Of a DNA stretch of 64,000 bases, positions 25,999-50,842 are shown piece after piece (the first letter of the stretch is position 1; each line of letters begins with the position of its first letter). The stretch comes from an uncultured Ignavibacteriales bacterium (GTDB taxonomy: Bacteria > Zixibacteria > MSB-5A5 > GN15 > FEB-12). The stretch spans positions 21,534-85,533 of the forward strand of contig CAYJOL010000002.1 of the NCBI GenBank assembly GCA_964371785.1, in the 5' to 3' direction. A model generated the notes under the pieces. That model saw only the letters and a program-made list of their open reading frames with translations. It was not told the DNA's origin and did no database searches. A program made the translations under genes and the position numbers.

Positions 25999-26790
25999 TC
26001 AGCCACCTAGATGAACGATCTTCCAGAAATCTGCCTCGGAATAATTTCGTTTATCGAAAAACAGCGATTTGCCCAAAGCATCGATGATCTCGTTCTCCTT
26101 CATTCTGCCTGATGGTGTGCCTATGAGCCCAGAGTCCCGGTACAATCTGACCAAACGTCCATCCCCAATCGGCTCACTCTGAAAAAATTTCAAGCGATCC
26201 AGCCGTTCCTGCCCTATTTCGGACATTGCCCACTTACTGAAGTAGGTTACCCAGTACAGACCGGGAAACATGGCACAAAAATCGTCGCGGCGACATCTTC
26301 CGCCAGCCGTCTGGCCCACATAGAACTCTGTAGATCCCAATTCCTCCTTTAGAAACACGAAATGCTTCTGATCAAGGTCTTTCACAGTTGTAAGATAACC
26401 AAACGCCGGATCGAAATTCTCCACAACAAATCTAAACAATTCAACCGCCAACTCATCTCCGGCGTTCATGGCCAGATAAACGCGGCAACCCCAGGGAAAC
26501 CGATTGGGATTCAGGCCCACTCTTTCGCTCCAGTCCATATTGGCCGTGAATCTCGGTCGAGATGCTCGCCTTAACATGACGGGAGACTTATACTTCAGCC
26601 ACAGGGAAATCGCTCCCTCCACACCGTCTTCGCTCAGTTTCCTTCGAATTGGCTCGCCGGATCCGTAATATTCCGGCCGAAGCAGGGAATTCCTGTGGCC
26701 GCACCAATCGGTCAGTAAGGAACGTGCAAATTCCTCCGATCCAATGTTCTTTATTGTTTGAATATTGATATAGTACATCGGTGCCCTCAT
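25999..26790 (-). CDS. Putative immunity protein for the upstream Rhs C-terminal toxin
   Basis: 263 aa. The start codon overlaps the Rhs stop in an ATGA arrangement at 26787..26790. No signal peptide and no family recognised. The call rests on position only. Confidence 0.6.
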   Translation of the reverse strand: MRAPMYYINIQTIKNIGSEEFARSLLTDWCGHRNSLLRPEYYGSGEPIRRKLSEDGVEGAISLWLKYKSPVMLRRASRPRFTANMDWSERVGLNPNRFPWGCRVYLAMNAGDELAVELFRFVVENFDPAFGYLTTVKDLDQKHFVFLKEELGSTEFYVGQTAGGRCRRDDFCAMFPGLYWVTYFSKWAMSEIGQERLDRLKFFQSEPIGDGRLVRLYRDSGLIGTPSGRMKENEIIDALGKSLFFDKRNYSEADFWKIVHLGG

Positions 26791-29700
26791 TCCTCAGGGG
26801 GATTCAGATACGTTCTTCTTATTACTCTTGTGGGGAGCTCTGGGACTGCCCCAGATACCTTGCTATTCCTACCAGTATAGATTATGTGTTTTCTTCCAGT
26901 GTCCTTAGCGTATTGCCGCTGAGTCTGTATCTGCCTTGTGTTGTCAACTCTCCTGCTATTCTTGATTTCAACAACGGATTTAGCATCCAAATGATCGGGA
27001 ACAGAACTTTTGCCGTCGGCGCTGATCTTAGTAGTATTCTTTGTCAATCCTTCTTTCTGAATGGCTTCACTTTCCTTAATCAATCCGCGCTTCATTGGAC
27101 TGACCTCTGATGCCCCACTGACTGCGGCCCCCGAAAGTGCCTTGTTTGTACCGTACATAAAGCTAACTGCTCCCCCCGCAGCCAGCATCCTTTGAACTAC
27201 TGTTTCGCCCGTACTCATCTCAGTGTAGTCACCCTCTTGAGTCGGGGCTTGTACATAACTCGCATCGTTTAGGACGTAGGAGAACGCGGCAGCGAGCGCC
27301 CCTAAAAACAACAGAGCCGGACACTGTCCATTAGGATCAACAAAGTTCATCGGATTGTCTAGTGTATACGCATAAGGACTCCAGGCAGGATATTCGTTGG
27401 CCAAAGGATCGACCGACAAAAACCGACGCATAAGTGGATCATAATACCGAGCGCCAAAGTAATCTAGCTCCATGCTCAACTCGGGGTCAAGCTCTTTTCC
27501 AGTATACTCGAATCGATTCGCGTCGGTCACCGTGCGACGGAGGGTTATCCCATAGGGCCGGTACTGATACCAGTTCTTCAGTTGTCCGGTTCCGTCAACT
27601 GTGGCCACCACTGAACCAAGTTGATCCGACATGAAGTACCGGACATCAGCAGCTGTCGTCTTGAAAGACGCTTCCCTTTGTCCGTTCACGTAGACGTAGT
27701 TGTTGATCAAAGTGCTGGTTTGGGAACCGGAGTAATCCGCCAGTATGTTGTCCCCAAAGTAGTAGTAGCCGGTGTAAACGTTTGCCCACGCATAACAGTA
27801 GGTCGGTGTCACGTCCAAAACAAACATTGGACTGAACAACCTGAAGTATCTTCGCGGCCCAGTGAGTAGATCATTTCCCACGCGAAAGTTAGTCGCAGCG
27901 CAATCGACGTCCGCAAGGAATGGACCATCAACCGAGATATCATCTGTGCCGCCAATCGGCACCGGATCGATTGGGTCATTCTCATCGCATTCGTACCGAT
28001 AGCGATATCGGTACTTTTTCGCTATTCGTTGACCTTCGGAGTTGTACCAGTAGTCGACGATACTCGTGGTCGTATATAGCCCTGGAGCTGTTCTTTGCCT
28101 GAGTTCCTCTCGATCATTGTATATGAAATTCATCGACTTGTTATCATATCGCGACAGAGCACCAGATGGTGTGTATTGTAGGCAGGAGGCACCCGGATAC
28201 ACTCCTGATATCTGCTCCAGTCGATTGCTGTTCGGGTAGTACGTATAATCAGCGACCACTGAATCAGTCTCTGAGAGGAGCGCATCTATATTGCCATTAT
28301 CGTCGTATGTGTACTTAAGAGGTGATAGTGGGTTGAGACCTTCATAGGACTCACCTACAAGACGTCCTGCACCGTCGTACGCATAGTGCTGAGTGACATC
28401 TGTTGTTCCGCTTCCCGGACTGACGGTCAATCGGTATGATGCGATATTGCCGGTGAAATAGCCTGACGGGAATTCGCATTCGTCTGCGCAATCCCCTTGA
28501 TATCCTCCCTGCGTGTACTGAAGCTGCAGAGCGAAATGATCCTCTGGACCAGAGGTTTGATCGGAGACCATTCCGCTATTGATAGACGTCAGCCAACCAC
28601 GACAGTTATAATCATAATCCACGGTCTGTCTTGGAAGCACTGTCCCGACTCGCTTCTGTTTCACCCTCCCGGTGGGCCAGTACGTGTAAGCGAGCTTGAG
28701 ATAACCGTCTGCATCCGTCACGTTTTCCACTTGTCCCGATCTGTCGTATTCGTACACGATAGACTTCCCGTTGGGATAAGTGGTACCGGTAATCTGCTGC
28801 TGTTTGTTATATGTAGCCTCCACAGTCTTTTGAAGTGAAGCGTCTATCACGCTAACAAACTGGTCCGCGCGCACTTCGTTTCCATATACATCGTATTGAT
28901 AAGACGACCATGATGCAGAATCCGGAAATCCGTTGTGATAGTGTATCGACTTTGTGAGTTGACCGGCACCGTATTTGCCTTCATCATACTCGTACTTGGA
29001 CAGGGTCTTTCGACCAGCTGCTTCTTCTTCTGGATAATCAGGATCGGTCTCAGCTAAGGCCCAAGCTAACATATCACATACTACTCCCTCTTCGACGACC
29101 CGTTGGTGCGTATCATATTTGTAGTACCGGAAGGTAGCGGTGGGAAGCCCCGTCGCGGACAATGTCATGCGGCGATTTCCCATAACATCATACATGTAAT
29201 AATCGTTGCCTCTATCTGCACTCGAATTAACGATTAGCCAGCTGTTGTTCAGATGCACCTGTACGACTCGATCTCCTGCCGGTTTTACAATCGAGTCGAC
29301 ATACCCATTGAAATCTCGATAGAATAAGGTCCTTATATTCAATCCAGTCGTGCTGGAATCCTGAACGGTAGCCACGACCTTCCCTGTCTTGTCTTTGTAG
29401 GTGAACGTAGCGTAGCCATCCTCATCGGTGACCTTTTCAGAGAAGAGGTTGTTTGGTCCAGAGAATACTGGATCAAGGCCTGCCAATATGCCCTCGCTAT
29501 GGCCATAGCTGAAAGTCCTTGGCTTATCCCTAAACACCCCTTCGGCGCGAGTAGCTGTAAGTCTCCTCAAGGGATCGGCCGAATAACTCGATTGGGTATA
29601 CGGGGCGAAATAACCTGAAGGTGTTCTACAATCTGGTGTCTGTGCCGAGTTATAATATGCATACAGCCTGCTCTGATCACTAAGTACTTCGCCGGGTGAC

Positions 29701-32700
29701 CAGTCGTACATAACGCCGCTTATGAGATAGGAGTCTATATAATCAAAAGGATTAGTACTGTCACTTATCACGCCAAAATCTACATCGCCATAGCCGTCCG
29801 ACATTAGCACTGGTATTGGCAGAAACGTTGCCTCGCTCCGTCCGTCAAGCGTATTCGTACCACCACTTACAATTATATCGGTTCCATCGAATTGTTGAGT
29901 CTGCTTTACTATACCGAAGGCATTGACAAAATACGACGTCACTTCAGGATCGCTGTAAAACGCAATGTTATCGACCCAGAGTTTGTGTTGCCCCACCTCA
30001 ATGTCGCCAGGGTGTTTCAGTCGAAACTTGAGAAAGCTTAAATCATCAATCATTTGGCCCGCCAGCTTGACATGGTATACGCATTCTCCGTTGTAGAAAA
30101 AGAAGAGATTGTCTTCAATCTTGCCGACCATAAACCGCCTTTTTCCTTCGGCGTTAATCTCGACCCAGGGGCCGTAGAGATCCTTATTTGTTAGTATATT
30201 CGTTGGATTGTCATAATCACCGTTGTACTGGAAAACGTAAAACTTGCCTTCATACGTGTTATTAGTGCGACAGATAGCAAGACCGTACCCCTGCCCTGAG
30301 TGATTCTCAAATCCGAACCACAAGTCTGTACGATATAATGGATTATCTGGGGGCTGATTGGTCGCCCCTGTCGTGGAGCTATCTGAAAAATCGAATGCAA
30401 AAAAACCATCTGCAAAAGGTGCTAGGGGAATTTTGACATCACGATAATCATCAATATCTTCCCCGGCAAAACTCATTCGCTCTTGATAATCGATTGTTCC
30501 ACCCGAGCCAGACACTTCATAGCCGTGCGGCGTTGGATCCGATGACAATGCGGTCACAGCACCCTGCCGGCTGAAGTTCTCAATGAAACCAATTCCTCTT
30601 GAGGCAAACATGTGCTCCACGTTTGGCAGATCCCGGCGATATTTTCCCGGTGATTGCGTCGGAAAAAGAGCTTCTGTCGACTTATAAAATGTCTCTTTAC
30701 CGGATAGCGGGTTCCACTCAAGATCGGCCGTGGCACAAGCGTAGCCGTATTGGTCATAGTATTTTCTAACTGGGATGTTTGCCTCGTCGGACGTCGCAAT
30801 GACTCTGCCCAAATCGTCATAACTCCACGACTTGACTATGCAATCAATCGGACGAATGCGTACGTCATCGATATACATTTCATCCTGAGCACCACCAGCG
30901 TAACACGCAATCCATTGACCCAGGGCAACGTGTAAAGTGCACGCGATATGCTGCCACTCAAATGGAGTCTCAGCGATCCTCTGAATCGAATCAACAACAC
31001 CGAAGTCAGAATATACTATAAACGTAAAACTCAAGGAGTTCGCATTGGACGAGAATAGCCACGCGTCCGCAACATAGTCTCCAGCAGGGACATTCACGAG
31101 TTCCCCGGAGAAGGCGTAGTGTCCGCCTCCAAAATCATAGGCTCCACCGCGTCCCGAGAAGCCGCAACTCAACGGCAATTCAAACCAATTCCAAGAAACA
31201 GGTTGGGTAGCCCCATCGTCCACACTCTCGCCAGTGAATATGCCAAAATTCCTAGAGTCTACATCTTCGAACTCGGCCTCTAGTCCGAATCTATTGTAAA
31301 TCCGCGCTGTTAACACTCCATCCGGTCTCCGAACTTGAGTAGCATTACCATAGCGGTCCACATCTTCGGTGATCGTTGAGATAAATTCATTATTGTAGTC
31401 GATCTGGTGATCACTGTTTTTGTCGATCCATTGCCTCACTTCGGATTGATAGAATAAGCTGTCACCTCCGCGTCTATTCTGCGATGGGAAATCGCTTCTA
31501 TACTGAAATTGTGTGAATTGCTGGTTGGTCCTTACGCCACCCGAATCCTTTTCAACGAGTTCAAAATCCTTAGCCATTAAGAAATAGGCCCTTCTCATAG
31601 CATTCGGAAAATCTTCACAGTCTCCAGCCAATTTGTCCGGCATGGAGAGCGGACATGTGGCATACGATGTTGTTGTGACAGACTGATAACCATTCAAATC
31701 GACAGACTTTGTCAGTAGGCGGTATGGGAAATTGTCCTCGTATGTATAGTGAGTCGCAGTACCAACACCGTCGTTGCGCTCGACGACAGAGTCAAGCACT
31801 ACCCAGTAGGAGCACCCAAGGGTATCCGCATAGGATCCATCGGGGCGCAAGAACCGTTCTCCGAACGGGTAGAACGAATCGTCTTGATATAGATTGGCTT
31901 TCGCGCTGGGCCAGCGATAATACTGCTGGCTGAAGTTAATCTCGTGGCCTGCTTGATTCTTGAAAATGGTCCTGTAAAGTAGACCCTGAATAGGCGAGTT
32001 ATCTAGAAAATATCCGTAGTATGTGCTGAAAATCGAGTTTTGTCCAGAAAACTGATCCAGAAGCATTGTCAAGAGCACATCCTGCGAGGTCGAATCTGAA
32101 GTGAGGTAGTAATACTCCGCAGATCCTTTACCCGGCAAAAGCCATGTAATCACGGGGTATTGAATTTGATGTGAAACGTTGTCAGAGAGAAAAGTAATGT
32201 ACTCGGTAGGCAGGTATGGCGCGCTAAAATCAAAAGTTCTACTACCAAGCGCATACATAAAGGAATGATAGTTGCCCGGCATACTTGTCGGATGACCAAT
32301 TCCATCATTTGTTTGAGAGCCAGGGTCGTACACTCCGTACTTCAAATTGATTGTTTCGGTTCCTGCCATGTCTCTATTGATGGACGGAACAGCGGTATTT
32401 GTGTCGAAGTTTGTCGTGATCGATTTTACCCGGCATCCGCCGCCGTAATGATGGTGCCCATCAAGAATGTACTCGTCCGACTCGTATTCGTAGGCATAGG
32501 TCAATCCTTCCGGCGTGGTCATTGACGTGAGTGACCATGCCTGCGGATAAATGTAATTGTATCCGAAGAATTCCCGATCCCCCCACGCTTTGTGAACGAA
32601 GTCACTCAACGTATCGAGCCAAAGTTGACTTTTCAGCTGGTCTATCGTCGGATTCTCATAGCCTCCGACAAGGGCTGGATGCACCTCATCATCCTTCCCA

Positions 32701-34274
32701 TATATCCAATTTGTATAACTCCTGAAATAGATGCTCTTGTTTAGCATGTAGCTTGAAGATTTGTCTAGTGTCGTGTCATAGGAAAAAGAGTACCTCTTCT
32801 TGTATCCATTGCTGAAACGCTCCCTGGCTTCCACAGTAAATTCCGGAGACTCCGGGTCAGGTGATTGAGAATATTGATTGTCCGTACCGATGGTTATGCT
32901 TCGGAGGGTCGGTTCGCCATGTCTTTCAAGGTCTGACCTGTCACACTCTGTCTCCTCCATCTCGAAATACTGGTGCCATTTTGTTTTGAGAGGACTAACA
33001 CCGGGCATCTCGTAATTGAATGTCGCCTGGTAGTAAGTTTCTGATGATAGTGGTGAGCGACCTTTCACGGTAAACCGGCTTAAGACGTAATCCTTTTTCC
33101 GCGACGACAAGTTGTCGCCCGAACGCCAGAATCTAATTGTTCGAAACTTGTCCACTGTCGTCAATTCGAAGTTCACTCTGACGTTAGGAGTTACGATAGA
33201 CTTGAGATAAGTTACTTCCGTAGTATCATAGCGACTCGCGATATGGTCCAGATTTATGCAGTCCCAGTCGGACATGAAAAGCGTATCTATATCCGGAACA
33301 CTAGTACTTGTATCGTGGTATTTGAATGCCACATACCATCCCCTGACTGGTTCAAAATCATCCGTCGGGTCTAGTGGAGTGCCACCGCCATCAACATAAT
33401 CGCGACTCAAGATTTCGGTGAGTACCCATTCACTCGTCTCAAGATAGTCCTTATAGTACACCAGGGTATTGTCACCCAGCTCTGGAAAAGAGGAAATGAA
33501 GTCGAGTCGAGCTTCTCCGACAGAACTGCTTTTTAGCCCCAACCTGAATATGTACTTCGTCGCATTCTCGTCGATCAGCACAAAGTAGTTGTATTTGAAA
33601 TAGTACCAGTTGTCGCTAATAATATCTGTGCCTCCGTAATATTCTCGTTGCGGAAAGATCGTTTCAGGGACGATCACGGTATCTGGAAGCTCCGGCGGCA
33701 ACGGATTAGTGATTGTCGTATCCATGGCAACTTCAGCATAAAGAGAGTCGCGTGTACCTGAGATCGGTACAAAGTGAGGATGGCCCATCGTACCAATATT
33801 CATGAATCGAATGCTACGCCCCGGAATAGTCACCTCATACATATCATTGACAAACAGACGCGTCTCCTTACTCAAGTATTCGAAACCATGGATATCGGCG
33901 CCATGAATTGTTACCCGCTTCACTGACCATCCCCCGAAATTCCAACCGAGTCCGACCCAGGAGGCGCTCTGGTCTACCTTTATTCCCGACTGATATGACA
34001 GATTTAGTGGTATGGGAATTGGGCCTGGAACCGTAAACAACGGAATGTTTACGCTTAGATCGCCTCCCGGCCCAACGTTGTTGTATTTCTGAACGGCTTC
34101 AATTCCGTTTGTGCCGACAAATCCAGACTCGCGCGGCAAGCTGAACGGGTGATTCGTAGGGGGGCCATCAGCTGCAATGCTGATATCTCCAACAAAACCC
34201 ACAGAACCAAGCAGAAATGCGATTGACAAAAGGCAACCCTGTAGCCTTCCAGACTGAACCAAACGTGATAACAT
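26787..34274 (-). CDS. Rhs/YD-repeat polymorphic toxin with TcB/SpvB-like N-terminus and PD-(D/E)xK nuclease-like C-terminal domain
   Basis: Signal peptide from MLSRLVQSG, with a GGGGGAA RBS 6 nt upstream. SpvB-like segment LSVNIPLFTVPG...LNLSYQSG...WVGLGWNF. YD repeats include YQYDVYGN, YEYDRSGQ, YAYDGAGRL and YTYDDNGN. Rhs core reads YTGKELD...YFGARYYDP..RRFLSVDP...FVDPNGQ. The 178-aa tail carries VPDHLD...VVEIKN...QIQTQ. Confidence 0.9.
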   Translation of the reverse strand: MLSRLVQSGRLQGCLLSIAFLLGSVGFVGDISIAADGPPTNHPFSLPRESGFVGTNGIEAVQKYNNVGPGGDLSVNIPLFTVPGPIPIPLNLSYQSGIKVDQSASWVGLGWNFGGWSVKRVTIHGADIHGFEYLSKETRLFVNDMYEVTIPGRSIRFMNIGTMGHPHFVPISGTRDSLYAEVAMDTTITNPLPPELPDTVIVPETIFPQREYYGGTDIISDNWYYFKYNYFVLIDENATKYIFRLGLKSSSVGEARLDFISSFPELGDNTLVYYKDYLETSEWVLTEILSRDYVDGGGTPLDPTDDFEPVRGWYVAFKYHDTSTSVPDIDTLFMSDWDCINLDHIASRYDTTEVTYLKSIVTPNVRVNFELTTVDKFRTIRFWRSGDNLSSRKKDYVLSRFTVKGRSPLSSETYYQATFNYEMPGVSPLKTKWHQYFEMEETECDRSDLERHGEPTLRSITIGTDNQYSQSPDPESPEFTVEARERFSNGYKKRYSFSYDTTLDKSSSYMLNKSIYFRSYTNWIYGKDDEVHPALVGGYENPTIDQLKSQLWLDTLSDFVHKAWGDREFFGYNYIYPQAWSLTSMTTPEGLTYAYEYESDEYILDGHHHYGGGCRVKSITTNFDTNTAVPSINRDMAGTETINLKYGVYDPGSQTNDGIGHPTSMPGNYHSFMYALGSRTFDFSAPYLPTEYITFLSDNVSHQIQYPVITWLLPGKGSAEYYYLTSDSTSQDVLLTMLLDQFSGQNSIFSTYYGYFLDNSPIQGLLYRTIFKNQAGHEINFSQQYYRWPSAKANLYQDDSFYPFGERFLRPDGSYADTLGCSYWVVLDSVVERNDGVGTATHYTYEDNFPYRLLTKSVDLNGYQSVTTTSYATCPLSMPDKLAGDCEDFPNAMRRAYFLMAKDFELVEKDSGGVRTNQQFTQFQYRSDFPSQNRRGGDSLFYQSEVRQWIDKNSDHQIDYNNEFISTITEDVDRYGNATQVRRPDGVLTARIYNRFGLEAEFEDVDSRNFGIFTGESVDDGATQPVSWNWFELPLSCGFSGRGGAYDFGGGHYAFSGELVNVPAGDYVADAWLFSSNANSLSFTFIVYSDFGVVDSIQRIAETPFEWQHIACTLHVALGQWIACYAGGAQDEMYIDDVRIRPIDCIVKSWSYDDLGRVIATSDEANIPVRKYYDQYGYACATADLEWNPLSGKETFYKSTEALFPTQSPGKYRRDLPNVEHMFASRGIGFIENFSRQGAVTALSSDPTPHGYEVSGSGGTIDYQERMSFAGEDIDDYRDVKIPLAPFADGFFAFDFSDSSTTGATNQPPDNPLYRTDLWFGFENHSGQGYGLAICRTNNTYEGKFYVFQYNGDYDNPTNILTNKDLYGPWVEINAEGKRRFMVGKIEDNLFFFYNGECVYHVKLAGQMIDDLSFLKFRLKHPGDIEVGQHKLWVDNIAFYSDPEVTSYFVNAFGIVKQTQQFDGTDIIVSGGTNTLDGRSEATFLPIPVLMSDGYGDVDFGVISDSTNPFDYIDSYLISGVMYDWSPGEVLSDQSRLYAYYNSAQTPDCRTPSGYFAPYTQSSYSADPLRRLTATRAEGVFRDKPRTFSYGHSEGILAGLDPVFSGPNNLFSEKVTDEDGYATFTYKDKTGKVVATVQDSSTTGLNIRTLFYRDFNGYVDSIVKPAGDRVVQVHLNNSWLIVNSSADRGNDYYMYDVMGNRRMTLSATGLPTATFRYYKYDTHQRVVEEGVVCDMLAWALAETDPDYPEEEAAGRKTLSKYEYDEGKYGAGQLTKSIHYHNGFPDSASWSSYQYDVYGNEVRADQFVSVIDASLQKTVEATYNKQQQITGTTYPNGKSIVYEYDRSGQVENVTDADGYLKLAYTYWPTGRVKQKRVGTVLPRQTVDYDYNCRGWLTSINSGMVSDQTSGPEDHFALQLQYTQGGYQGDCADECEFPSGYFTGNIASYRLTVSPGSGTTDVTQHYAYDGAGRLVGESYEGLNPLSPLKYTYDDNGNIDALLSETDSVVADYTYYPNSNRLEQISGVYPGASCLQYTPSGALSRYDNKSMNFIYNDREELRQRTAPGLYTTTSIVDYWYNSEGQRIAKKYRYRYRYECDENDPIDPVPIGGTDDISVDGPFLADVDCAATNFRVGNDLLTGPRRYFRLFSPMFVLDVTPTYCYAWANVYTGYYYFGDNILADYSGSQTSTLINNYVYVNGQREASFKTTAADVRYFMSDQLGSVVATVDGTGQLKNWYQYRPYGITLRRTVTDANRFEYTGKELDPELSMELDYFGARYYDPLMRRFLSVDPLANEYPAWSPYAYTLDNPMNFVDPNGQCPALLFLGALAAAFSYVLNDASYVQAPTQEGDYTEMSTGETVVQRMLAAGGAVSFMYGTNKALSGAAVSGASEVSPMKRGLIKESEAIQKEGLTKNTTKISADGKSSVPDHLDAKSVVEIKNSRRVDNTRQIQTQRQYAKDTGRKHIIYTGRNSKVSGAVPELPTRVIRRTYLNPPEE

Positions 34275-34335
34275 TACGACTTCCCCCGAATTGATGATTG
34301 AATGGCAAAGTGCCCTAACGCACCCTCTCCTCATT

Positions 34336-34364: not shown

Positions 34365-34525
34365 GTCAGAATTTTCTGAGAAGTCAGGTTTCTGGGCTGA
34401 AACATCGACTCAGTCAGCACCGATGCTCGCCATTGAGTGGACTCGTCTGTTCCAAAACCGGATTTCACCTAACAATTGGGCTCCACTGAAACACCACAAC
34501 TAATGTATCTGAAGTTATTCTGGTC

Positions 34526-35795
34526 TGACCTTCCCCCAAAAAACCGGACAATTTGAGAGTAAAGTATTTGACTGAATGCGGATCTTCGAGAAGGAGGATA
34601 TTGCATGAGGAGGTCACGATTCACCGAACAGCGGATTGCCTATGCCCTTCGGCTGGCTGAGAAGGGGGCGCCTGCTGTGGAGGTCTGCCGCAAGCTGGGG
34701 TATCCGAGCCGGCCTTTTACGCCTGGAAGAAGAAGTACGCCAGGATGGGGATCACGGAGCAGCGCCGGGTCAAACAGCTGGAGGAAGAGAACCGGAAGGT
34801 CAAGAACTGGTTGCGGGTCTGAGCCTCGACAAGCAGATGCTGCAGGACGTTCTGTCAAAAGAGCTCTAAAGCCCGTGCGCAAACGCGAGACCGTGCAGAC
34901 CCTGACCGGACAGTATGGGGTAAGCAGTCGTCGCGCGTGCGGGCTGGTACAGCTGCATCGATCAACGTTTTATTACGTGTCCCACCGGCCGGGATGACTG
35001 GGCGTTGCGGATGCGATTGCGAAGGCTGGCGGCAGCAGACCCCGTTTCGGTTATTTGCGTTTGCATGTACGATTGCGCCGACAGGGCTGGCTGGTGAATC
35101 GGAAGCGGACCTATCGATTGTTCTGCGAGGAAGGATTGAGTGTGCGGACAAAGCACCGACGGAAACGGGCCAATCACTGCCGGGTGACACCGGTTCTCCC
35201 AGCCGCGCCGAATCAATGCTGGGGTATGGATTTTGTAGCCGATACCTTGGATGACGGACAGCGGTTCCGGGTATTGACTGTAGTCGATCTATTCACCAGA
35301 GAACGCCTGGGCATTGAAGCCGACTTCTCCCAGCCCGGTCGAAGGGTCACTGCTGTACTCGATCATCTCTCCACGACCCGCTGTCTGCCTCAGATCATTA
35401 CGGTGGACAACGGATCGGAGTATATTTCCAAAGTGATGGATTCCTGGGCCTATCGCCGGGGTGTACAACTCGATTTCATTCATCCCGGCCGACCCGTCGA
35501 AAACGCCCACATCGAGAGCTTCAACGGTCGACTTCGGGACGAATGCCTGAATGCCGAACTGTTCTTGAAATTGGAGGACGCCCGAAAGAAATCAGCTGAG
35601 TGGAAATCAGATAACAACAAGATCCGGCCGCACAGTTCTCTGAAGACCTTTCTCCTCTGGAATTCGCGGTCCAATGGAGTTCAACCAACCCGCAGGCAGT
35701 CGTATTCCCTAACCAGAAATTGGTCCAGTCCACGGCGTGAGGTCAAACTACGAAACCGTTAGGTTATGACTGGACCAAAGAATGGGGGAAGGTCA
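34526..35795 (+). mobile_element. IS3-family (IS407-group-like) insertion sequence, inactivated
   Basis: 1270 bp bounded by perfect 13-bp terminal inverted repeats: TGACCTTCCCCCA at 34526 and TGGGGGAAGGTCA ending at 35795. The internal orfAB is broken by several frameshifts. No target-site duplication is evident. Confidence 0.85.
34605..35762 (+). pseudogene. IS3-family transposase orfAB, multiply frameshifted
   Basis: Conserved segments are scattered over all three frames. These include RFTEQRIAYAL...CRKLG, SEPAFYAWKKKYARMGITEQRRVKQLEEENRKVK, LVAGLSLDKQMLQDVLSK and ALKPVRKRE...RRACGLV. Further downstream are DDWALRMRLRRLAAADP, RFGYLRLHVRLRRQGWLVNRKRTYRL...DNGSEY...ESFNGRLRDECLN...RPHSSL and EDLSPLEFA. 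Confidence 0.85.
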
Positions 35796-36034
35796 GTTGA
35801 AAAAGAGCTACTTCCATGTTCATCTGCAATTAGTCACTGCATATTTTCTCATTTGGCGCTAAATAACGGCAGGTTATAGGACGGACCACGCCCTACTAAG
35901 GCTTTTTCGGCAGGTCCCAAGCGATTGACCTCCCGTGCAAAGAAGGATATCGCAAGTTTCAAGTCGCCCAAACCATAGAGACGGGCATGCGGCAAGCAAA
36001 CTCGTCTCTTGGCAATGATTCACCGGGGTGACAT

Positions 36035-43874: not shown

Positions 43875-45071
43875 TTACAATTTAACCGCCAGATCGAACA
43901 AGGGCAGGTACATTGATATGAGAATGAATGCGATAAAAACGCCGAGCACGATAATGATAACCGGCTCCAGCAGCGATGTGAGGATGTTCATCTCCGACTC
44001 AGTCTCCTTTTCAAAATAATCGGCGGCCTGTAAGAGCATTTCCGCCAATCGCCCGGTCTTTTCGCCAGACGCGGCCAACCGGAGCATCGTCCTCGGGAAT
44101 ACCCCGAAAGATGAAATCGAGTCGGTAAACGACCGACCTTGGGAGAGGTTGAATTGCGCCTCTGCAAGGAGATTGCCCAGATACATGTTCCCGGTCGTCT
44201 TAGAGGCGATATGTACGGCGGTGATAATGTCGATCCCCGACTTCGACAACATCCCCAGCGTTCGACAGAACCGTACCGAAATCAGTCTCGTGCTTAAATT
44301 TCGCAACAGAGGTAGCCGAAGTAATAGCCGGTGTCGCATAAGGGTAACCGATTTGGATCGGAAGGCAAAAGCCGCGGACGCCACAATGCAGATCAGAGCA
44401 AGCGTCAACCACATTAGATTGCCCCTGATCATCACACTGACGCCGATGATTGATTTCGTCAATGAAGGTAGCTCAACCCCGAAGTTCTCGTACATCGACG
44501 AGAATACCGGTACGATGTAGATCACAATTGCAGCCATGACCAAAGTGGCTACTAACACTACCAAAGTGGGATATGCTATTGCGGAACGCACCTTCCGCGT
44601 CAGCGCTTCTGATTTTTCCAAGTGCAGAGCTATCTGGTCAAACGTCGTGCTTAGTAATCCGGAGAGTTCACCGGCTCTTATGAGGCTGATGTATAGTTCA
44701 TCGAAAATAACCGGGTACTCGCCGAACGCTGTTGCCAATGACTGCCCAGACTCCACGCTCTGCGCGACGTTCTTGATAATGTCCTTAATAACCCTGTTCC
44801 TTGACTGCTCACCTGCTAGTTCTAGCGATTCCAAAAGCGGCACGCCGTTTGAAAGAAGCATCTGTATCTGGCGTGTGAGTCGGGTGAGTTCGGCGCGCTG
44901 AAAAGTCCGGATAAGTTGTTGTTGGATTATACTGTAGGTAAGCTTGTAACTAACGACAAAAAGCCCTTTGTCGATCAACTTCATCTGGAGCTCACTGACA
45001 TCGCGTGCCGTCATTATTCCGTTAGCTTGGTCGCCTGTCAATGTTTTTCCTGAATATTTATATCTGGGCAT
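43875..45071 (-). CDS. GspF/PilC-family inner-membrane platform protein
   Basis: 398 aa with two repeated T2SSF-type halves (LSNGVPLLESLE... and LSKSGIDIITAV...) and three TM segments. Divergent from the ATPase gene. Confidence 0.85.
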   Translation of the reverse strand: MPRYKYSGKTLTGDQANGIMTARDVSELQMKLIDKGLFVVSYKLTYSIIQQQLIRTFQRAELTRLTRQIQMLLSNGVPLLESLELAGEQSRNRVIKDIIKNVAQSVESGQSLATAFGEYPVIFDELYISLIRAGELSGLLSTTFDQIALHLEKSEALTRKVRSAIAYPTLVVLVATLVMAAIVIYIVPVFSSMYENFGVELPSLTKSIIGVSVMIRGNLMWLTLALICIVASAAFAFRSKSVTLMRHRLLLRLPLLRNLSTRLISVRFCRTLGMLSKSGIDIITAVHIASKTTGNMYLGNLLAEAQFNLSQGRSFTDSISSFGVFPRTMLRLAASGEKTGRLAEMLLQAADYFEKETESEMNILTSLLEPVIIIVLGVFIAFILISMYLPLFDLAVKL

Positions 45072-45127
45072 CTTGCCTGCACCCTTACTTTGTCATATAA
45101 TATATACAAGTTTGTCAACTGTGGGGA

Positions 45128-46564
45128 ATGGTTTTCTTGATGGGCCGGGAAATTTCCGATTCATTTTCGCAGCGATTCTGTGAACAGTTCAACCTGCTCC
45201 CTCTGCTTGAACAAGAGCACGTTAAGCTGCTGTTCTGTGAACACAGCGATCTGTCGATTGTGCCGTACATTGCGATGAAGGCACAGATACCTATTACTTT
45301 CCAGCGGACGACATCAAGCGAGTTGGAGGAATCGATTGAACGAGCTTTCACTCAGGACAAGGATCGCGAACCGAATTCCCAGGTGATGGCCAGTCCGACC
45401 CGCGTTCATACCTATAATAACGCTGTAGATTCACTGAACAAATTGATCGCCGGCAGTATTGCTCAGCGAGCTTCGGACATTCATTTTGAACCACAAGCTG
45501 ATTCAATGATCTGCCGGATGAGAATAGACGGGGTGCTCTTCAAAAAGTCTGCATACACAAAGGCTGAGGTGCCGGAAGTCATTTCTCGCATCAAGATCAT
45601 GTCGGGACTGGACATTGCGGAGAAGCGTCGACCGCAGGATGGCCGAATTCGTTTTTCACATGATAATAGGATTGTGGATATCCGAGTATCGGTAATACCC
45701 ACCGATTTCGGTGAAAAGGCAGTCCTGCGCATCCTCGACAAGAAGAGCCTGAAGGTGGAGTTAAGCGCTCTCGGGTTCTCCACGCGACAACTCAGTACAT
45801 TTCAGGAGACCATCAAATTGCCGCATGGCATTATTCTGGTAACCGGTCCAACCGGGTCTGGCAAAACAACAACACTGTACGCAGCCCTTTCAGCACTCAA
45901 GTCATCCGAAGTCAACATCTCGACGGTTGAAGACCCCATCGAATATAATCTGGAGGGCATCAATCAAACGCAAATCCGACCTGAAATTAATGTCAGCTTT
46001 GCCGTAATGATGCGGGCCTTGCTCAGACAGGACCCAAACATTCTCATGGTAGGTGAGATCCGCGATCCTGAAACGCTTGAAATGGCTATCCGGGCATCAC
46101 TCACCGGACACCTGGTCTTGTCAACCCTGCATACGAACGACGCAGTCTCGACCATCAATAGGCTGGTTGACATGGGGGCCGAGCGCTCGCTATTGGCGTC
46201 GACTCTCAGGGCAATCATCGCTCAACGTCTTGTACGAAGGATTTGTGCTCGCTGTCAAACGGACAGTGTGAATGATCTTAACATCCTGGCTGCGCGCAAA
46301 CTCCAGATCGAACCATCTACCGGCTTCCGGCAAGGTTTGGGCTGCGAACGGTGTCTGCAGTCGGGCTACTTTGGAAGAACTGCTGTGTATGAGGTGTTAT
46401 CCGTAGACAATAGCGTTCGTGAGGTAATCCTAAATGGTGGGATAGAGGCAGATTTGCTTCAAAGGGCACGTCAGAACGGCTTTGAAACAATGCACGAACG
46501 TGCCGTTGAGCTTATTGGAAATAGCATAACTACTCCGACGGAAGTGCTAAGAGAGATAGGCTAG
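45128..46564 (+). CDS. GspE/PilB-family secretion/assembly ATPase
   Basis: Walker A GPTGSGKTTTLY, Asp box STVEDPIE, Walker B ILMVGEIRD, His box LVLSTLHTND and tetracysteine motif CARC...CERC. The N-terminal domain is short. Confidence 0.9.
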   Translation: MVFLMGREISDSFSQRFCEQFNLLPLLEQEHVKLLFCEHSDLSIVPYIAMKAQIPITFQRTTSSELEESIERAFTQDKDREPNSQVMASPTRVHTYNNAVDSLNKLIAGSIAQRASDIHFEPQADSMICRMRIDGVLFKKSAYTKAEVPEVISRIKIMSGLDIAEKRRPQDGRIRFSHDNRIVDIRVSVIPTDFGEKAVLRILDKKSLKVELSALGFSTRQLSTFQETIKLPHGIILVTGPTGSGKTTTLYAALSALKSSEVNISTVEDPIEYNLEGINQTQIRPEINVSFAVMMRALLRQDPNILMVGEIRDPETLEMAIRASLTGHLVLSTLHTNDAVSTINRLVDMGAERSLLASTLRAIIAQRLVRRICARCQTDSVNDLNILAARKLQIEPSTGFRQGLGCERCLQSGYFGRTAVYEVLSVDNSVREVILNGGIEADLLQRARQNGFETMHERAVELIGNSITTPTEVLREIG

Positions 46565-46567
46565 CTG

Positions 46568-48526
46568 ATGAGGATTGGCGCAAACAAACTTATAATAAGC
46601 ACATTTTTGACTTTAGCACTGGGTATCGGCATGGCTGCAACCAATCGCGCTGACGCGCAAATCAGCGCAGACCTGCTGAAGCAGGCGCTTACGAAGAATG
46701 CTCAGGATAGTCTCGCACCGAATGACTCCAGCGCAGCGCCGCGCTCCCAAAGAATTGTTGACACAGTCCTGACAATCCCCAAGCTGGACTACGCCAATGT
46801 AAAACTCTCAGATGCCCTGACGGCCCTTGGTCGTGCGTACGGATTGTCTATGTATGTGGACTCATCGGTGACCGGAAATATTTCGATGCGCCTGGACAAC
46901 GTTAGCCTCAATGACGCCCTGCTTTTCATTATCCGCCAATACAAACTCTCGTGGGACAAGACCGGCGACATTATTAAGATCTTTCGGCCGGAGATTCCCC
47001 CTCCCCCGCCTGAGCCTTTGAACATCTCGTTCAAGGACCAGTTGTTATCAGTCAATGTGTCCAAGTGCGACCTGGAGCGATTCGTGTCAGCTCTTTCCGA
47101 CACTACCGGCAAGAACATTGTATTGGAAAAGGATACCAAGGGCACCATCAGCTCAAGAGTCACTGATATGGCCCTGGACAAGGCGCTGAGCGTCATCTTT
47201 ACCGCTAACGGCTACACTTACCGTGACATAGATGGTGTTGCGTACGTTGGTGTTGAAATTGACGCCAAGGCGGGCAAGCCGAAGGGGCGAAATCTAAATG
47301 CTAATTGCCGGGACGGATTGATTTCGGTTGACCTCACGAACGTCGGGCTGGCCGATTTGATTCCTTACCTCAAATCGGAATGCGGGATTAACCTGTTCAT
47401 TCAATCAGCGCTTGAAGGGAACATTAGTGCCAGTTTCACGGACAAGACCATCGAGGAAGCGTTGACATATATTTTCATCAACTCACCATATACCTACAAG
47501 CAGGTCGGCGACTTGTATCTGATCGGCCAGCGAACATCCGAGGACTTGTATGTAACGAAGCTGGTGAAACTCAAACACCTGATCGCCTCGGCGGTCGAGT
47601 CGTTAATTCCAGCGACTGTGTCAAAACAGTTGTCGATCAAGGTGGTGAAGGAACACAACGGTCTCGTATTGACCGGGCCAATAACAGCGATCAGTGAAGC
47701 AGAATCGTTCATTGATGCGATCGATATTCCAATGGCACAGGTATTGTTTGAAGTACTGGTCGTTGATTATTCGAGCACAGACCGGGCGGAATTCGGCCTC
47801 ACGGCCAACAACTTCGGCGGTGATTCCGGACTTCCCGGTCAATCGTATTACCCTAATATCGACGTCAGCGGCATCGGAAGTGATTTGAACTATAACCTGC
47901 GCTCGGTGGAACGGCATCTAGGCATCGGTAATCTCGGCACACTTGATGATAATTTCTTTGTCAGACTGCAGATGCTGCAACAGCAAGGTAAGGCCAATAT
48001 CCGATCTCATCCGACCATCGCCGCCCTAAACGGTCATCCGGCCTCCATTAGTATCGGGACGACCCAGTATTTCCTGCTGGAAAGCAAGACAGTTTACCCG
48101 ACGGAACAATCGTCGCTGTCGACCCAGACCTCGCAACATTTCGAGTTGGTGGAAGCGGACATGAAACTGGAGATCACGCCGTTTGTGAACTCCAGCGGCG
48201 AGTTGATCGTCGATATCAAGCCGGAGTTCAGCACACCGGCCAGCACCTTCAACCCGGACGTGCCACCTACTATCAACAAGCGAGTGTTGAATTCCACAGT
48301 ACGGTTGCGTAATGGCGAGACGATTGTACTTGGCGGATTGGTACAATCGAGTAAGAATGAGCACATCGAGAAGCTTCCCATCCTTGGTTCGTTTCCAATC
48401 CTGGGAAGACTATTCCAAAATCGAACATCGACTGACGTAAAGTCCGAACTGATGATTTATGTAACTCCGTACGTCTATTACGGAGCGGAAGGTTCAGTCA
48501 ATCGGGACAGCCTCCTGAAGAGATAA
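46568..48526 (+). CDS. Secretin (GspD/PilQ family) with three N-terminal STN-like modules
   Basis: 652 aa with a signal peptide. Three tandem modules of about 80 aa (..LSDALTALGRAYGLSM.., ..LERFVSALSDTTGKNI.., ..LADLIPYLKSECGINL..). C-terminal secretin core INKRVLNSTVRLRNGETIVLGGL...LPILGSFPILGRLF. Confidence 0.85.
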   Translation: MRIGANKLIISTFLTLALGIGMAATNRADAQISADLLKQALTKNAQDSLAPNDSSAAPRSQRIVDTVLTIPKLDYANVKLSDALTALGRAYGLSMYVDSSVTGNISMRLDNVSLNDALLFIIRQYKLSWDKTGDIIKIFRPEIPPPPPEPLNISFKDQLLSVNVSKCDLERFVSALSDTTGKNIVLEKDTKGTISSRVTDMALDKALSVIFTANGYTYRDIDGVAYVGVEIDAKAGKPKGRNLNANCRDGLISVDLTNVGLADLIPYLKSECGINLFIQSALEGNISASFTDKTIEEALTYIFINSPYTYKQVGDLYLIGQRTSEDLYVTKLVKLKHLIASAVESLIPATVSKQLSIKVVKEHNGLVLTGPITAISEAESFIDAIDIPMAQVLFEVLVVDYSSTDRAEFGLTANNFGGDSGLPGQSYYPNIDVSGIGSDLNYNLRSVERHLGIGNLGTLDDNFFVRLQMLQQQGKANIRSHPTIAALNGHPASISIGTTQYFLLESKTVYPTEQSSLSTQTSQHFELVEADMKLEITPFVNSSGELIVDIKPEFSTPASTFNPDVPPTINKRVLNSTVRLRNGETIVLGGLVQSSKNEHIEKLPILGSFPILGRLFQNRTSTDVKSELMIYVTPYVYYGAEGSVNRDSLLKR

Positions 48527-49827
48527 TGAATCAACGACTGAAAGCAATGGTCTCCGAAGGAGTCAGGCTGACGCCTTCGGAGTATATCGTATGGATAGGC
48601 AGAGCTGAACTGCTTTTCCTTAGGGTGCGCAATCGTGGCGGATGCAAGATACTTTTTCGTTGCTCTAATGTGAGACCGACAGACAGAACTCTTGAGACTT
48701 GTCTCTCGTCGCTAATTGCATCCCCTGCCTATTTTGGACAGCCGATCGATATTATTCTTAATACTGAAGGCTATTCGTATATCAAACACATTGGTAAGAT
48801 TGACGCTTCTCAGTTATTCGAGCGGCTGAAGCTTGTACGTGATGCGGATTTTGCGGTCGCCTATCGAGCCAAAAAACACAAACGCAAGACGTACCTGGTA
48901 TACGAGGCCTCAGACAGCCAATATCTGTCTCAGCTGTATGAGATTACCGGCCGTTTGGGGATACCCATATGTCAGGTAGCGCGCGCGTCTACACTGTTGT
49001 TCGAGGCCGCTTTGGAGAGAATCACCGGCAATTATGTCGCCGAGTTCCGTCTTACCGAACACGAGCGTCTCGTACTGGCGTTTGACCAATCGGGGAACGC
49101 GCTGGCAGTGTCAGTTTCGCCCACGGCAGAGTACCCCGACCAAAACACGGTTGCCACGCTCTTTGAGCATACCAATTATGTGCACGAGTTGTTTACGGAA
49201 GTACCTCGGAACACCGGGACTAACCACGTGCCCTCCTTATCACACATACTCCTGACCGGGCTGAGGCGACTGCCACGCGCAAAAACGACTGGCAAAAATG
49301 GCCGGAAACTCGGAGTGGCACGACTGCTTAAACTCGCTCTGAACAGCGCCAAGTTGCTTGTGATACTCCTTCTGGCGATGAATGTCTTCTTGGGAGCAGT
49401 TCTCCTGTCCTTCACAGTATTCATTGAGAAGCCGAGCGATGCCATCCGAACATATCAGTTCGCATACAGCCGCAAATATATGCTCCAGCAGTCTATCGAT
49501 TCCTTGAATGCGTATTTCACCACGGCCGGGGCCCACTCTACACGTACTAGCGCTGCCGCCATTGTCAGCCTATTCTGCCAACGATCCGTCTCCGGATTGT
49601 ATGTCGATCAACTGGTGTTAAAAATGGGAACGGCCGACAGCCTGCAAGTAGAAGTATCGGGCAAAGCGAGAAATGAGCGAAGCGTGTTTGCCTATCGTAC
49701 GATGTTAGACAGCCTGTTTGCACCGCTGGCATTCACTATGAACTCTGTCAGGCCTGTTCTGGTGACCGACATGGGACGACCAGATACACTCACAAACTTC
49801 AAACTGGCTACTCAATTGCATGATTAG
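48526..49827 (+). CDS. Bitopic assembly protein, GspL-like or PilM/PilN-fusion-like
   Basis: 433 aa. Cytoplasmic part of about 265 aa, one TM segment (LLVILLLAMNVFLGAVLLSFTVFI), then a periplasmic tail. The start overlaps the secretin stop. The call rests on topology and position only. Confidence 0.45.
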   Translation: MNQRLKAMVSEGVRLTPSEYIVWIGRAELLFLRVRNRGGCKILFRCSNVRPTDRTLETCLSSLIASPAYFGQPIDIILNTEGYSYIKHIGKIDASQLFERLKLVRDADFAVAYRAKKHKRKTYLVYEASDSQYLSQLYEITGRLGIPICQVARASTLLFEAALERITGNYVAEFRLTEHERLVLAFDQSGNALAVSVSPTAEYPDQNTVATLFEHTNYVHELFTEVPRNTGTNHVPSLSHILLTGLRRLPRAKTTGKNGRKLGVARLLKLALNSAKLLVILLLAMNVFLGAVLLSFTVFIEKPSDAIRTYQFAYSRKYMLQQSIDSLNAYFTTAGAHSTRTSAAAIVSLFCQRSVSGLYVDQLVLKMGTADSLQVEVSGKARNERSVFAYRTMLDSLFAPLAFTMNSVRPVLVTDMGRPDTLTNFKLATQLHD

Positions 49828-50329
49828 AACACTTCAAAACCATGGAGCTGTCCTCTTGCTGGTATCATTTGTGGGCCTATCGGCCGTGATGGTTTATAGT
49901 GTCGTAGTTTTGATCGATCAGGTCGCGGGGTCCGTTAAGATTTTCACTTTGGCGCTAGATTCTCAGGAACACAGTGCCACAATCCAGGCCGAAGTGGTTT
50001 CATTGGAGAAGCGATTGGCGACTCTATCCAGCCTAAAGGAACATCAACAGGAGCGCAGACCATTGTCGCTGTCTTCGATAGAAGGATGCGCCAGACAGAA
50101 TCGGTTAGGGATCGGGGCCGTAGAACGACTCAGTTCAGGTTCCAAAAACGGTGAAACATCCGGTGTTAGGTACAGCGTCTCGATTATCGGAACCATAGGT
50201 AATATGGTTAGGTTTCTCGATCAGCTGGAAAAGGAATGTGTGATAGAATCTGACAACATCACTATTCGCCCCGATAATGCAGATGGGACGCAGGTAGTTT
50301 CGGTAATGAATGTGATACTAAACGAGTAG
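49820..50329 (+). CDS. GspM/PilO-like bitopic protein
   Basis: 169 aa. N-terminal TM segment, a coiled segment, then a small C-terminal domain. Overlaps the previous gene by 8 nt. Confidence 0.45.
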   Translation: MIRTLQNHGAVLLLVSFVGLSAVMVYSVVVLIDQVAGSVKIFTLALDSQEHSATIQAEVVSLEKRLATLSSLKEHQQERRPLSLSSIEGCARQNRLGIGAVERLSSGSKNGETSGVRYSVSIIGTIGNMVRFLDQLEKECVIESDNITIRPDNADGTQVVSVMNVILNE

Positions 50330-50334
50330 CGGTC

Positions 50335-50814: not shown

Positions 50815-50842
50815 GACATATGGCCCAGTTTGCCAGGGTACC

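Follow-up and report, generated by a model that had tools for sequence, protein, structure and literature searches.

How a giant Rhs toxin that opens with a Sec-type leader could leave a cell with two membranes is the question raised by a minus-strand gene in a 64-kb stretch of contig CAYJOL010000002.1 from an uncultured Ignavibacteriales bacterium (the whole stretch is called the window, and coordinates refer to it unless another locus is named). The host appears, from LptF/G and Lgt, to be a diderm of the Fibrobacteres-Chlorobi-Bacteroidetes (FCB) type. Known routes for Rhs proteins are the type VI (T6SS) and type VII (T7SS) secretion systems, TcA syringes after lysis and, in monoderms, simple Sec export. 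The toxin itself is ordinary; what was unexpected is a conserved tie between its gene and a type IV filament machine that resembles a type II secretion system (T2SS) or type IV pilus (T4P). The reading slightly favoured here is that of an antibacterial Rhs toxin on an unusual chassis, which would be exported by Sec and then by a dedicated T2SS-like step. A preliminary description had presented the locus as a leader-bearing Rhs toxin with an immunity gene and an unexplained route of delivery; the observation was real, and its interpretation was essentially right.

An Rhs gene with a predicted nuclease tail and a coupled, probable immunity gene

The gene forms part of an uninterrupted minus-strand open reading frame (ORF; 26787..34334, 2515 amino acids (aa) from the first ATG). 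The ATG at 34274, which is preceded by GGGGAAG and agrees with the N-terminal starts of relatives, gives a protein of 2495 aa (26787..34274, minus strand), to which the residue numbers below refer. The protein and the gene that follows it were divided as listed, using sequence profiles, AlphaFold2 (AF2) models and Foldseek comparisons.

34170..34274, minus strand: Sec-type signal peptide, predicted, aa 1-35 (2 Arg, hydrophobic core, ISIA/AD)
33825..34142, minus strand: conserved N-terminal module, aa ~45-150, GDLSVNIPLF...LSYQSG...WVGLGW (family conservation)
31143..34169, minus strand: N-terminal half of the predicted β-hairpin shell, aa 36-1044, TcB-like fold (AF2 and Foldseek)
30819..31142, minus strand: CBM16-like β-sandwich insert, predicted, aa ~1045-1152, ending in MYIDDVRIRP (AF2 and Foldseek)
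29808..30446, minus strand: second predicted β-sandwich insert, aa ~1277-1489, containing KLWVDNIAFYSD (AF2)
27564..29807, minus strand: C-terminal half of the YD/Rhs shell, aa 1490-2237, TcC-like (profiles and Foldseek)
27324..27563, minus strand: Rhs-associated core with autoproteolysis region, FGARYYDP...VDPNGQ (TIGR03696)
27258..27323, minus strand: hydrophobic helix that would open the released tail, aa ~2317-2339 (hydropathy)
26847..27068, minus strand: Tox-REase-7 (PD-(D/E)xK) nuclease toxin domain, aa 2403-2476 (PF15649)
25999..26790, minus strand: candidate immunity protein, 263 aa, its start codon overlapping the Rhs stop as ATGA

The motifs quoted in the preliminary description were all located where it had placed them: MYIDDVRIRP at aa 1133-1142, KLWVDNIAFYSD at aa 1431-1442, VDPNGQ at aa 2312-2317, CPALLFLGALAAAFSYVL at aa 2318-2335, VPDHLD at aa 2425-2430, VEIKN at aa 2435-2439 and QIQTQ at aa 2448-2452. 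The YD repeats and the Rhs core ending in VDPNGQ were recovered as profile matches, to PF05593 (RHS_repeat, aa 1822-1857, E 2e-7; TIGR01643 and YD_repeat_2x also matched) and to TIGR03696 (Rhs_assc_core, aa 2238-2317, E 5e-18), and the core contains the DPxG motif of putative self-cleavage.

The first 35 residues look like a Sec-type leader with predicted cleavage near ISIA/AD, as read from sequence features rather than with a dedicated predictor (13-aa hydropathy of 2.25 at aa 16). The cleavable-looking signal peptide described earlier was in this way borne out, and leaders were recognised by the same features in 13 of 14 relatives examined; only P0009, which is N-terminally truncated, had none. 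A lipoprotein reading was rejected, as the Cys of LQGC precedes the hydrophobic core and there is hence no lipobox. Likewise rejected were a class III prepilin leader (there is no Gly/Phe...Glu5 pattern, and no Glu at +5 after Gly) and cargo of a type IX secretion system (T9SS), since the Rhs protein lacks the C-terminal sorting domain that neighbouring genes possess.

The tail comprises the 178 aa after the Rhs core (aa 2318-2495). It matched PF15649 above the Pfam cut-off of 25 bits both within the whole protein (E 9e-8, 32.7 bits) and alone (E 2.4e-9, 37.8 bits), and contains the complete four-part signature that Zhang et al. 2012 (PMC3482391) gave for Tox-REase-7 (GxxxE / IxD / ExK / Q), namely GLIKE at 2397, VPD at 2425 (Val for Ile), EIK at 2436 and QIQTQ at 2448, in agreement with the PD-(D/E)xK assignment made earlier. 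The hydrophobic helix that had been noted at the start of the tail is one of only two hydrophobic 19-mer segments in the whole Rhs protein, the leader being the other.

The gene downstream has an alternative start, ATG 26778 (259 aa), with GAGGG upstream, and its 263-aa product has no N-terminal hydrophobic segment or leader. No Pfam or NCBIfam match at E<=1 and no PDB sequence match were obtained for this protein, and its relatives amounted to only six clusters among 5.8 billion proteins. In two of the loci in which relatives occur, the gene directly follows an Rhs core with a Tox-REase-7-like tail: a 44%-identical relative in L001 (tail Pfam E 7e-5; TGATG overlap) and a 39%-identical relative in L002 (tail Pfam E 1.3e-9; 10-nt gap). 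Among the window, L001 and L002 the tails are 33-48% identical and the partners 39-55%, so that tail and partner diverge together, and the catalytic residues are invariant. Because the relatives follow the same tail type in two unrelated metagenomic loci, the two genes were taken as a conserved toxin/immunity pair, and the coupled, leaderless downstream gene is very probably the cognate immunity gene that the preliminary description had proposed. The immunity families known for Tox-REase-7 are ImmHEAT, Imm23 and Imm54 (PMC3482391); the 263-aa protein matched none of these and is a candidate new immunity family for this toxin. Of the families that the preliminary description had named for profile searches, RHS_repeat and Tox-REase-7 were thus found, while SpvB and the Imm families gave no match. 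Judged from the sequence, the assignment as a polymorphic toxin of the Rhs class, with a Tox-REase-7 tail and its cognate immunity gene, can be made with high confidence.

Further observations concern the immunity homologues. An 83%-identical homologue (L003, 273-1052) has no toxin gene within 240 nt upstream and may be an orphan copy; about 70 bp downstream of it (L003, 1120-1233) lies a 38-aa, 82%-identical match to the window ORF at 53571-53867, at the end of the T2SS-like cluster, and L003 could represent an orphan immunity gene beside the T2SS-like cluster of a related organism. The toxins in L001 (745-1695) and L002 (1924-3102) include 'mini-Rhs' proteins of about 316-390 aa, each equipped with a signal peptide of its own, a small number of YD repeats, the Rhs core and a toxin tail (Tox-REase-7 in L001, HExxH in L002), a length far below what a cocoon requires. 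The gene downstream of the window's immunity gene gave no Pfam match.

A chassis family with exchanged tails

With the N-terminal 1750 aa as query, about ten full-length relatives were found (24-37% identical, 2049-2749 aa), and an exhaustive HMMER search over 1.84 billion representatives yielded 15 proteins at E<1e-30. Where a source is named, it is candidate division Zixibacteria, Ca. Abyssobacteria SURF_17, Ignavibacteriales or 'bacterium AH-315-J21'; others lie on unnamed metagenome contigs, and no family member comes from a cultured strain. TEN_YD-shell profile matches occur in these relatives. Conservation within the family collapses past aa ~2320, beyond which the tails differ: HNH tails are present in P0008 and P0013, an M91-like metallopeptidase in P0015 and an HEGHH motif, identified by eye, in P0011, while the tails of P0010 and P0017 received no family assignment. 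Because relatives swap tails on a conserved chassis, the family constitutes a polymorphic toxin system.

The hydrophobic helix after the core is found in the window protein (REase tail), in P0008 and P0013 (HNH) and in P0156 (tail not classified), whereas it is missing in the metallopeptidase-like P0011 and P0015; in P0010 a hydrophobic segment lies deeper in the tail. This distribution, in a small sample, would fit a role in crossing the inner membrane of a target cell.

Column identity within the family peaks at aa 51-150 (58-59%). The aa 45-150 module and leader alone are common to hundreds of Bacteroidota proteins of ~1600-1850 aa that are blank in Pfam, from Fulvivirga, Chryseolinea, Algoriphagus, Aquimarina, Paraflavitalea and others (L008-L083, e.g. 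L020, L074, L076, L058 and L023). The module was also seen on contigs binned as Nanoarchaeota/Woesearchaeota (L009, L016, L037 and L045), which are probably mis-binned bacterial contigs. Typical Rhs 'graveyards' follow the Rhs genes of several relatives: in L088 (17425-19714), a pair of Imm33 genes together with an orphan AHH toxin and its Imm11, and in L089 (20730-22009) and L087, orphan fragments of Rhs C-terminal regions (Rhs-CT). L087 also contains a second Rhs gene, of the DUF6531 type (19400-19696 and 20777-25498 for the L087 features together). No orphan Rhs-CT or immunity cassettes were found in the window by tblastn.

Linkage of the Rhs gene to a T2SS/T4P-like cluster

The preliminary description had pointed to a neighbouring T2SS/T4P-like gene cluster as a speculative candidate for export. 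This cluster, and the element that lies between it and the Rhs gene, are as follows.

34525..35796, plus strand: IS3-family insertion sequence (IS) with perfect 14-nt terminal inverted repeats CTGACCTTCCCCCA / TGGGGGAAGGTCAG
43875..53462: T2SS/T4P-like cluster (Pfam T2SSF, T2SSE, Secretin/STN/N0, N_methyl)
43875-45071, minus strand: GspF (Pfam T2SSF)
45128-46564: GspE (Pfam T2SSE)
46568-48526: secretin, with FecR_C/N0/STN domains (Pfam)
52165-53462: three pseudopilins (Pfam N_methyl)

Three conserved, unannotated proteins are also encoded in the cluster, and Pfam returned nothing for its unannotated genes. PilN/PilO, an MshEN-type ATPase and ComP-like pilin features place the cluster closer to T4P than to classical T2SS, and its proteins are closest to those of Zixibacteria. 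The positions of the Rhs gene relative to such a cluster in the window and in the loci of relatives were:

L084 (P0015): inside; GspE, Rhs, 104-aa ORF, secretin, PilN, PilO, ..., pilins, GspF
L085/L086 (P0016): inside, lacking the small ORF; GspE, Rhs, secretin, PilN, PilO, ..., pilin, GspF
L091 (P0014): inside, between pilin genes and GspF; a second Rhs gene before the secretin
L087 (P0010, Zixibacteria): Rhs adjoins GspF
L092 (P0011): Rhs adjoins GspF, a GspF fragment 56% identical to that of the window
L088 (P0013, Ignavibacteriales): Rhs 6 kb from the cluster
Window: Rhs 9.6 kb from the cluster
L089 (P0008): weak GspF-like match (E 8e-5) upstream of Rhs, with genes for integrase and transposase around it
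L006 (P0009, short contig): T2SS genes absent from the available sequence
L090 (P0017, most distant relative): no T2SS genes in the available sequence

In seven of the ten family loci (window included), the Rhs gene thus lies inside, beside or at most 10 kb from a GspE/GspF/secretin/pseudopilin cluster, and in the most divergent relatives (24-25% identity) it lies inside the operon. The orthologous cluster proteins are 39-57% (secretin), 48-55% (GspE) and 33-56% (GspF) identical to those of the window. At E<=1e-5, GspE, GspF or secretin were detected in 6/9 family loci, and in the flanks (~10 kb) of 13/76 Bacteroidota loci whose proteins have nothing but the leader and the aa 45-150 module in common with the family; as a control, 12 unrelated window genes were each found in 0-1 of the same 76 loci. 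Cultured carriers of the module include Fulvivirga sp. M361, Algibacter sp. 2305UL17-15, Aquimarina mytili and Paraflavitalea; of these, the Algibacter locus (L074) is the one with GspE and a secretin close by. A functional tie was argued from the fact that the linkage is kept at 24-37% identity across phyla, and inside the operon in the most divergent members. The cluster's candidacy therefore gained from a linkage conserved across the family, while export itself is only inferred; T2SS-like export or display of the Rhs protein is given an even to slightly better chance on the strength of this conserved neighbourhood. The literature searched contained no description of an Rhs gene in linkage with a secretin/pseudopilin operon.

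The apparently intact IS3 element is positioned between Rhs gene and T2SS-like cluster, 250 bp upstream from the start codon of the former, and may have helped to separate the two. It encodes orfA (HTH_Tnp_1, 34605-34997) and orfB (rve, 35055-35762), and no clear target-site duplication was found at it. In L091 (1-1965), the second Rhs/YD-shell gene (FG-GAP_3, RHS and TEN_YD-shell) lies directly upstream of the secretin, so that this cluster holds two Rhs genes, and in L088 a Pkinase-GAF-sigma54 activator is encoded between the T2SS-like cluster and the Rhs gene. The ~1600-aa module proteins of Bacteroidota might likewise be cargo of this machine, as a second class. More broadly, a T2SS/type IV filament lineage in the FCB group and neighbouring phyla could be dedicated to exporting or displaying giant SpvB-like/Rhs cocoons via the ~100-aa N-terminal module, a tentative proposal that must still be considered somewhat doubtful.

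A predicted shell resembling fused TcB and TcC

The two halves of the protein were modelled separately with AF2, giving for aa 36-1235 a predicted local distance difference test score (pLDDT) of 55 and a predicted template modelling score (pTM) of 0.54, and for aa 1130-2329 a pLDDT of 57.5 and a pTM of 0.45. The models are weak because the alignments were shallow (11-13 sequences), a profile search with the N-terminus having added two fragments only; both consist nearly wholly of long β-hairpins.

In Foldseek, the first half matched Rhs/Tc/teneurin shells at E ~1e-14, with TM-scores (TMq) of 0.26-0.30 for the TcdB-TccC entries 6l7i_F, 6sup, 6h6e_F, 6suq and 6h6f_F, 0.19-0.20 for YenB and the holotoxin entries 6suf_F and 6sue_F, and ~0.1 for T6SS Rhs. 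The second half matched the TcC chains 6l7i_G, 4igl_D and 5kis_B (TMt 0.46-0.47, E 1e-16 to 1e-17), its best overall match being mosquito SGS1 (8fjp_A, E 2.7e-27); teneurins and the teneurin-like protein 9ifo were matched as well. PDB sequence searches with the full Rhs protein and with the N-terminal profile gave chance-level matches only.

No Pfam family was assigned to aa 36-1044 beyond a weak DUF6531 match (aa 80-113, E 0.06-0.11), and Pfam SpvB (PF03534) did not match the window protein even at E<=1. The SpvB profile did match the equivalent N-terminal region of the distant relative P0017 (E 1.8e-6), which aligns with the window N-terminus at E 1.6e-10, and remote homology of the window N-terminus to SpvB is for this reason plausible, short of membership in the family. 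The earlier designation of the N-terminus as TcB/SpvB-like accordingly held at the level of fold, where TcB-TcC cocoons were the best matches of a low-confidence model, but not for SpvB as a profile. Neither FG-GAP nor TcdB_toxin_mid profiles matched, and the AF2 model was too uncertain at aa 140-560 for a verdict on a β-propeller.

Of the two jelly-roll or carbohydrate-binding module (CBM)-like stretches described earlier, the first resembles CBM16: the structures 2zey, 2zex and 3oeb matched aa ~1045-1152 (E 5e-5 to 1e-4, TMt 0.43-0.48), where the model reaches a pLDDT of 70-84. The second (model residues 148-360) is predicted as a β-sandwich of 13 strands with a pLDDT mostly of 51-84 and short dips below 50, and obtained no domain-level Foldseek match and no family assignment; that it is lectin- or LamG-like is suggested by inference only. 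On these models, the shell is probably a single-chain TcB+TcC (BC-type) cocoon of ~2300 aa with two lectin-like surface inserts.

Proposed route of delivery and its alternatives

In the proposed sequence of events, the 2495-aa precursor would be transported by Sec into the periplasm, and the co-inherited T2SS/T4P-like machine (GspE, GspF, secretin, PilN/O-like proteins and pseudopilins) would carry the Rhs protein across, or display it at, the outer membrane; in the window, the linkage would have been loosened to 9.6 kb by the IS3 element and a few other genes. The inserted β-sandwiches, one of them CBM16-like, would probably bind glycans of the target cell. From what is known of the family, the Rhs core would cleave the tail, which would stay encapsulated until a target is met, the hydrophobic helix would aid passage of the nuclease across the target inner membrane, and the nuclease would degrade target DNA, while the immunity protein would bind the nuclease in the cytoplasm and so protect sibling cells.

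Several points weigh against this sequence. A folded BC-type cocoon is about 100 Å across in Tc structures. Since a classical GspD channel seems too narrow for this, folded passage through the secretin is mechanistically doubtful, and this mismatch in size makes passage the weakest step. The shell models have a pLDDT of only 55 and 57.5, and their TM-scores to TcB/TcC are modest (0.26-0.47). Synteny among the relatives partly reflects shared ancestry, so that the cases are not independent trials. T2SS genes are lacking in the available sequence of L006 and L090, and only a weak remnant is present in L089, while in the window the cluster is 9.6 kb off and does not share an operon with the toxin.

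The size of the cocoon relative to the secretin is also the reason why a contact weapon was kept as the main rival, even though it is considered unlikely. The toxin/immunity pair would then serve a pilus- or pseudopilus-mounted device, in which a fibre of the T4P-like machine carries the Rhs protein at its tip or base and presses it onto an adjacent cell, by analogy with PilY1-type tip adhesins or with Tad-like killing in myxobacteria, instead of releasing it in soluble form. The whole cocoon need not then traverse the secretin; the position of the Rhs gene between GspE and secretin, or between pseudopilins and GspF, is typical of fibre accessories; the cluster is more T4P-like than classical T2SS; and Tad-like contact killing is on record (PMC10433427). 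Set against this, the leader is not a prepilin signal (no Gly/Phe...Glu5), the Rhs protein has no pilin-like or known tip-adhesin domain, and no retraction ATPase was seen in the clusters examined.

Rather unlikely, too, and ranked after the contact weapon, is that Sec takes the protein to the periplasm or outer membrane only, that it then leaves by lysis (as in the type X secretion system, T10SS), in vesicles or by an unrecognised transporter, and that the T2SS linkage arose by accident, historical or regulatory, in a variable region. The 9.6 kb between the window genes, with an IS element and unrelated genes between them, the three loci without an intact cluster nearby (L089, L090 and L006), the very large size of a folded cocoon for a secretin and the use of lysis by large Tc toxins (PMC10847048) could all be read in this way. 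An accident would not readily account for an Rhs gene within the operon in relatives of 24-25% identity, nor for a linkage that was specific relative to the 12 control genes; no holin, endolysin or spanin genes were present among the scanned window ORFs (~45 in all), and Tc components released by lysis are leaderless, whereas this Rhs family keeps its leaders.

A conventional Rhs or BC component, delivered by T6SS or TcA with partner genes elsewhere in the genome, is highly improbable. It draws on the fold-level likeness to TcB-TcC and on the scope of the gene scans, which covered the window and the relatives' flanks, not the whole genome. Within that scope, the absence of PAAR, VgrG, Hcp and TcA-like genes and of a T9SS sorting domain, as reported in the preliminary description, was confirmed: the Rhs protein has none of these domains, nor prePAAR or DUF4150; no T6SS or TcA genes were found among the ORFs scanned in the 64-kb window, and no TcA gene in the relatives' 10-kb flanks. 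There is, in addition, no SpvB match, and a β-propeller (the TcA-docking element) was not detected. Such delivery is unlikely above all because both routes load leaderless cargo from the cytoplasm (PMC10847048). Scarcely credible, finally, is that the protein is no weapon but an adhesin of the cell surface or a teneurin-like shell, its tail being a decayed remnant. The lectin-like inserts, the TEN_YD-shell matches in relatives and the Foldseek matches to teneurins and 9ifo could be cited for this view, but the Tox-REase-7 signature residues are all intact, the coupled partner gene co-varies with the tail, and relatives exchange tails in the way that active polymorphic toxin systems do.

Relation to known systems

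With Tc BC components (TcB-TcC cocoons such as TcdB2-TccC3 and YenB-YenC), the window protein shares the shell length of ~2300 aa (TcB plus TcC), a putatively self-cleaving DPxG-type Rhs core with a presumably encapsulated C-terminal toxin, and an N-terminal 'LxLxYxS...GxGW' that resembles the start of SpvB/TcB. Here, however, a single polypeptide carries a Sec leader, whereas the Tc components have none; Pfam SpvB, TcdB_toxin_mid and β-propeller matches and a TcA were not found; and an antibacterial-type nuclease with an immunity gene is associated with a T2SS-like operon rather than a lysis cassette. Classical Tc toxins have no signal sequences and exit by T10SS-mediated lysis (PMC10847048). 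The T6SS Rhs effectors (RhsA, Rhs1/Tre23, RhsP, Tse5 and Tse15) share the YD shell, the core, the polymorphic toxin and the adjacent immunity gene (Foldseek E 1e-14 to 1e-24), but the window protein is more than twice their size, has a Sec leader in place of PAAR, prePAAR or VgrG-binding N-termini, and lies near no T6SS genes.

Closer in layout are the Rhs toxins that Zhang et al. 2012 (PMC3482391) assigned to 'T2SS', among which Tox-REase-7 is listed with a signal peptide and RHS repeats, the 'TcdB/TcaC' route being reserved for a signal peptide with SpvB and an integrin-like propeller. These toxins and the Gram-positive WapA share with the window protein the order signal peptide, RHS, C-terminal toxin and immunity; WapA-type toxins cross a single membrane, whereas here the host is a diderm and the gene lies in or beside a secretin/pseudopilin operon. 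The 'T2SS' label appears to mean a Sec signal peptide. The exit of leader-bearing Rhs proteins from diderms has so far been labelled 'T2SS' by default, and the embedding of this rare and deeply diverged family in a secretin/pseudopilin operon, in several phyla, turns the label into a testable hypothesis. The Tox-REase-7 systems of that survey have ImmHEAT, Imm23 or Imm54 as immunity proteins, and that of the window is none of these. Because such architectures are listed by Zhang et al. 2012, neither the toxin nor the Rhs core nor the notion of routing an Rhs protein through Sec is new in itself; what does appear new is the chassis family (a fused shell of BC length that bears lectin-like inserts), the immunity family, and the embedding of Rhs in a secretin/pseudopilin operon.

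SGS1 is a Tc-like Rhs/YD shell that bears several receptor domains (PMC9935623), and the surface receptor domains of SGS1 and teneurin-like proteins resemble the CBM16-like and second β-sandwich inserts of the window protein. These proteins are, in contrast, eukaryotic and have no nuclease/immunity module, and SGS1 ends in helices predicted to become transmembrane rather than in an enzyme. For the export machine, the nearest parallel is the putative T2SS of Cytophaga hutchinsonii (chu_3191-3202), which has a comparable composition, a cellulose utilisation phenotype and no identified substrate (PMC5553014). It shares secretin, GspE, GspF, pseudopilins and PilM/N/O-like proteins, a gene order unlike that of Proteobacteria, and the superphylum of its host, but no Rhs or giant neighbouring gene has been reported for it.

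If the proposed route is true, it would constitute a new delivery pathway for Rhs proteins besides T6SS, T7SS, Tc/T10SS and Sec-only WapA, and would provide a first cargo class for the poorly understood T2SS of Bacteroidota and their relatives. The candidate immunity protein would add a new family for Tox-REase-7. A BC-type cocoon that occurs naturally as one chain and displays lectin-like domains on its surface would be of interest for understanding, and possibly for engineering, protein-delivery capsules, and the mismatch between cocoon and secretin pore is an interesting mechanistic problem in its own right.

Other genes of the window

A scan for promoters and terminators performed no better on the window than on shuffled sequence. 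Four genes encode proteins with T9SS C-terminal sorting domains (Por_Secre_tail / CHU_C with FlgD_ig), at 2376-5303 (plus strand), 14512-15561 (minus strand), 21516-23195 (minus strand) and 36035-39427 (minus strand). These matches indicate that the sorting-domain profiles work in this genome, and that the host uses T9SS for other surface proteins. A 1052-aa STAND protein with a Ser/Thr kinase, an NB-ARC/AAA NTPase and C-terminal TPR repeats is encoded at 17105-20263 (minus strand). Two paralogous LPG_synthase_TM (lysyl-phosphatidylglycerol synthase-like) membrane proteins are encoded on the plus strand, at 1240-2205 and 41774-42799, the second of which sits between the Rhs gene and the T2SS-like cluster.

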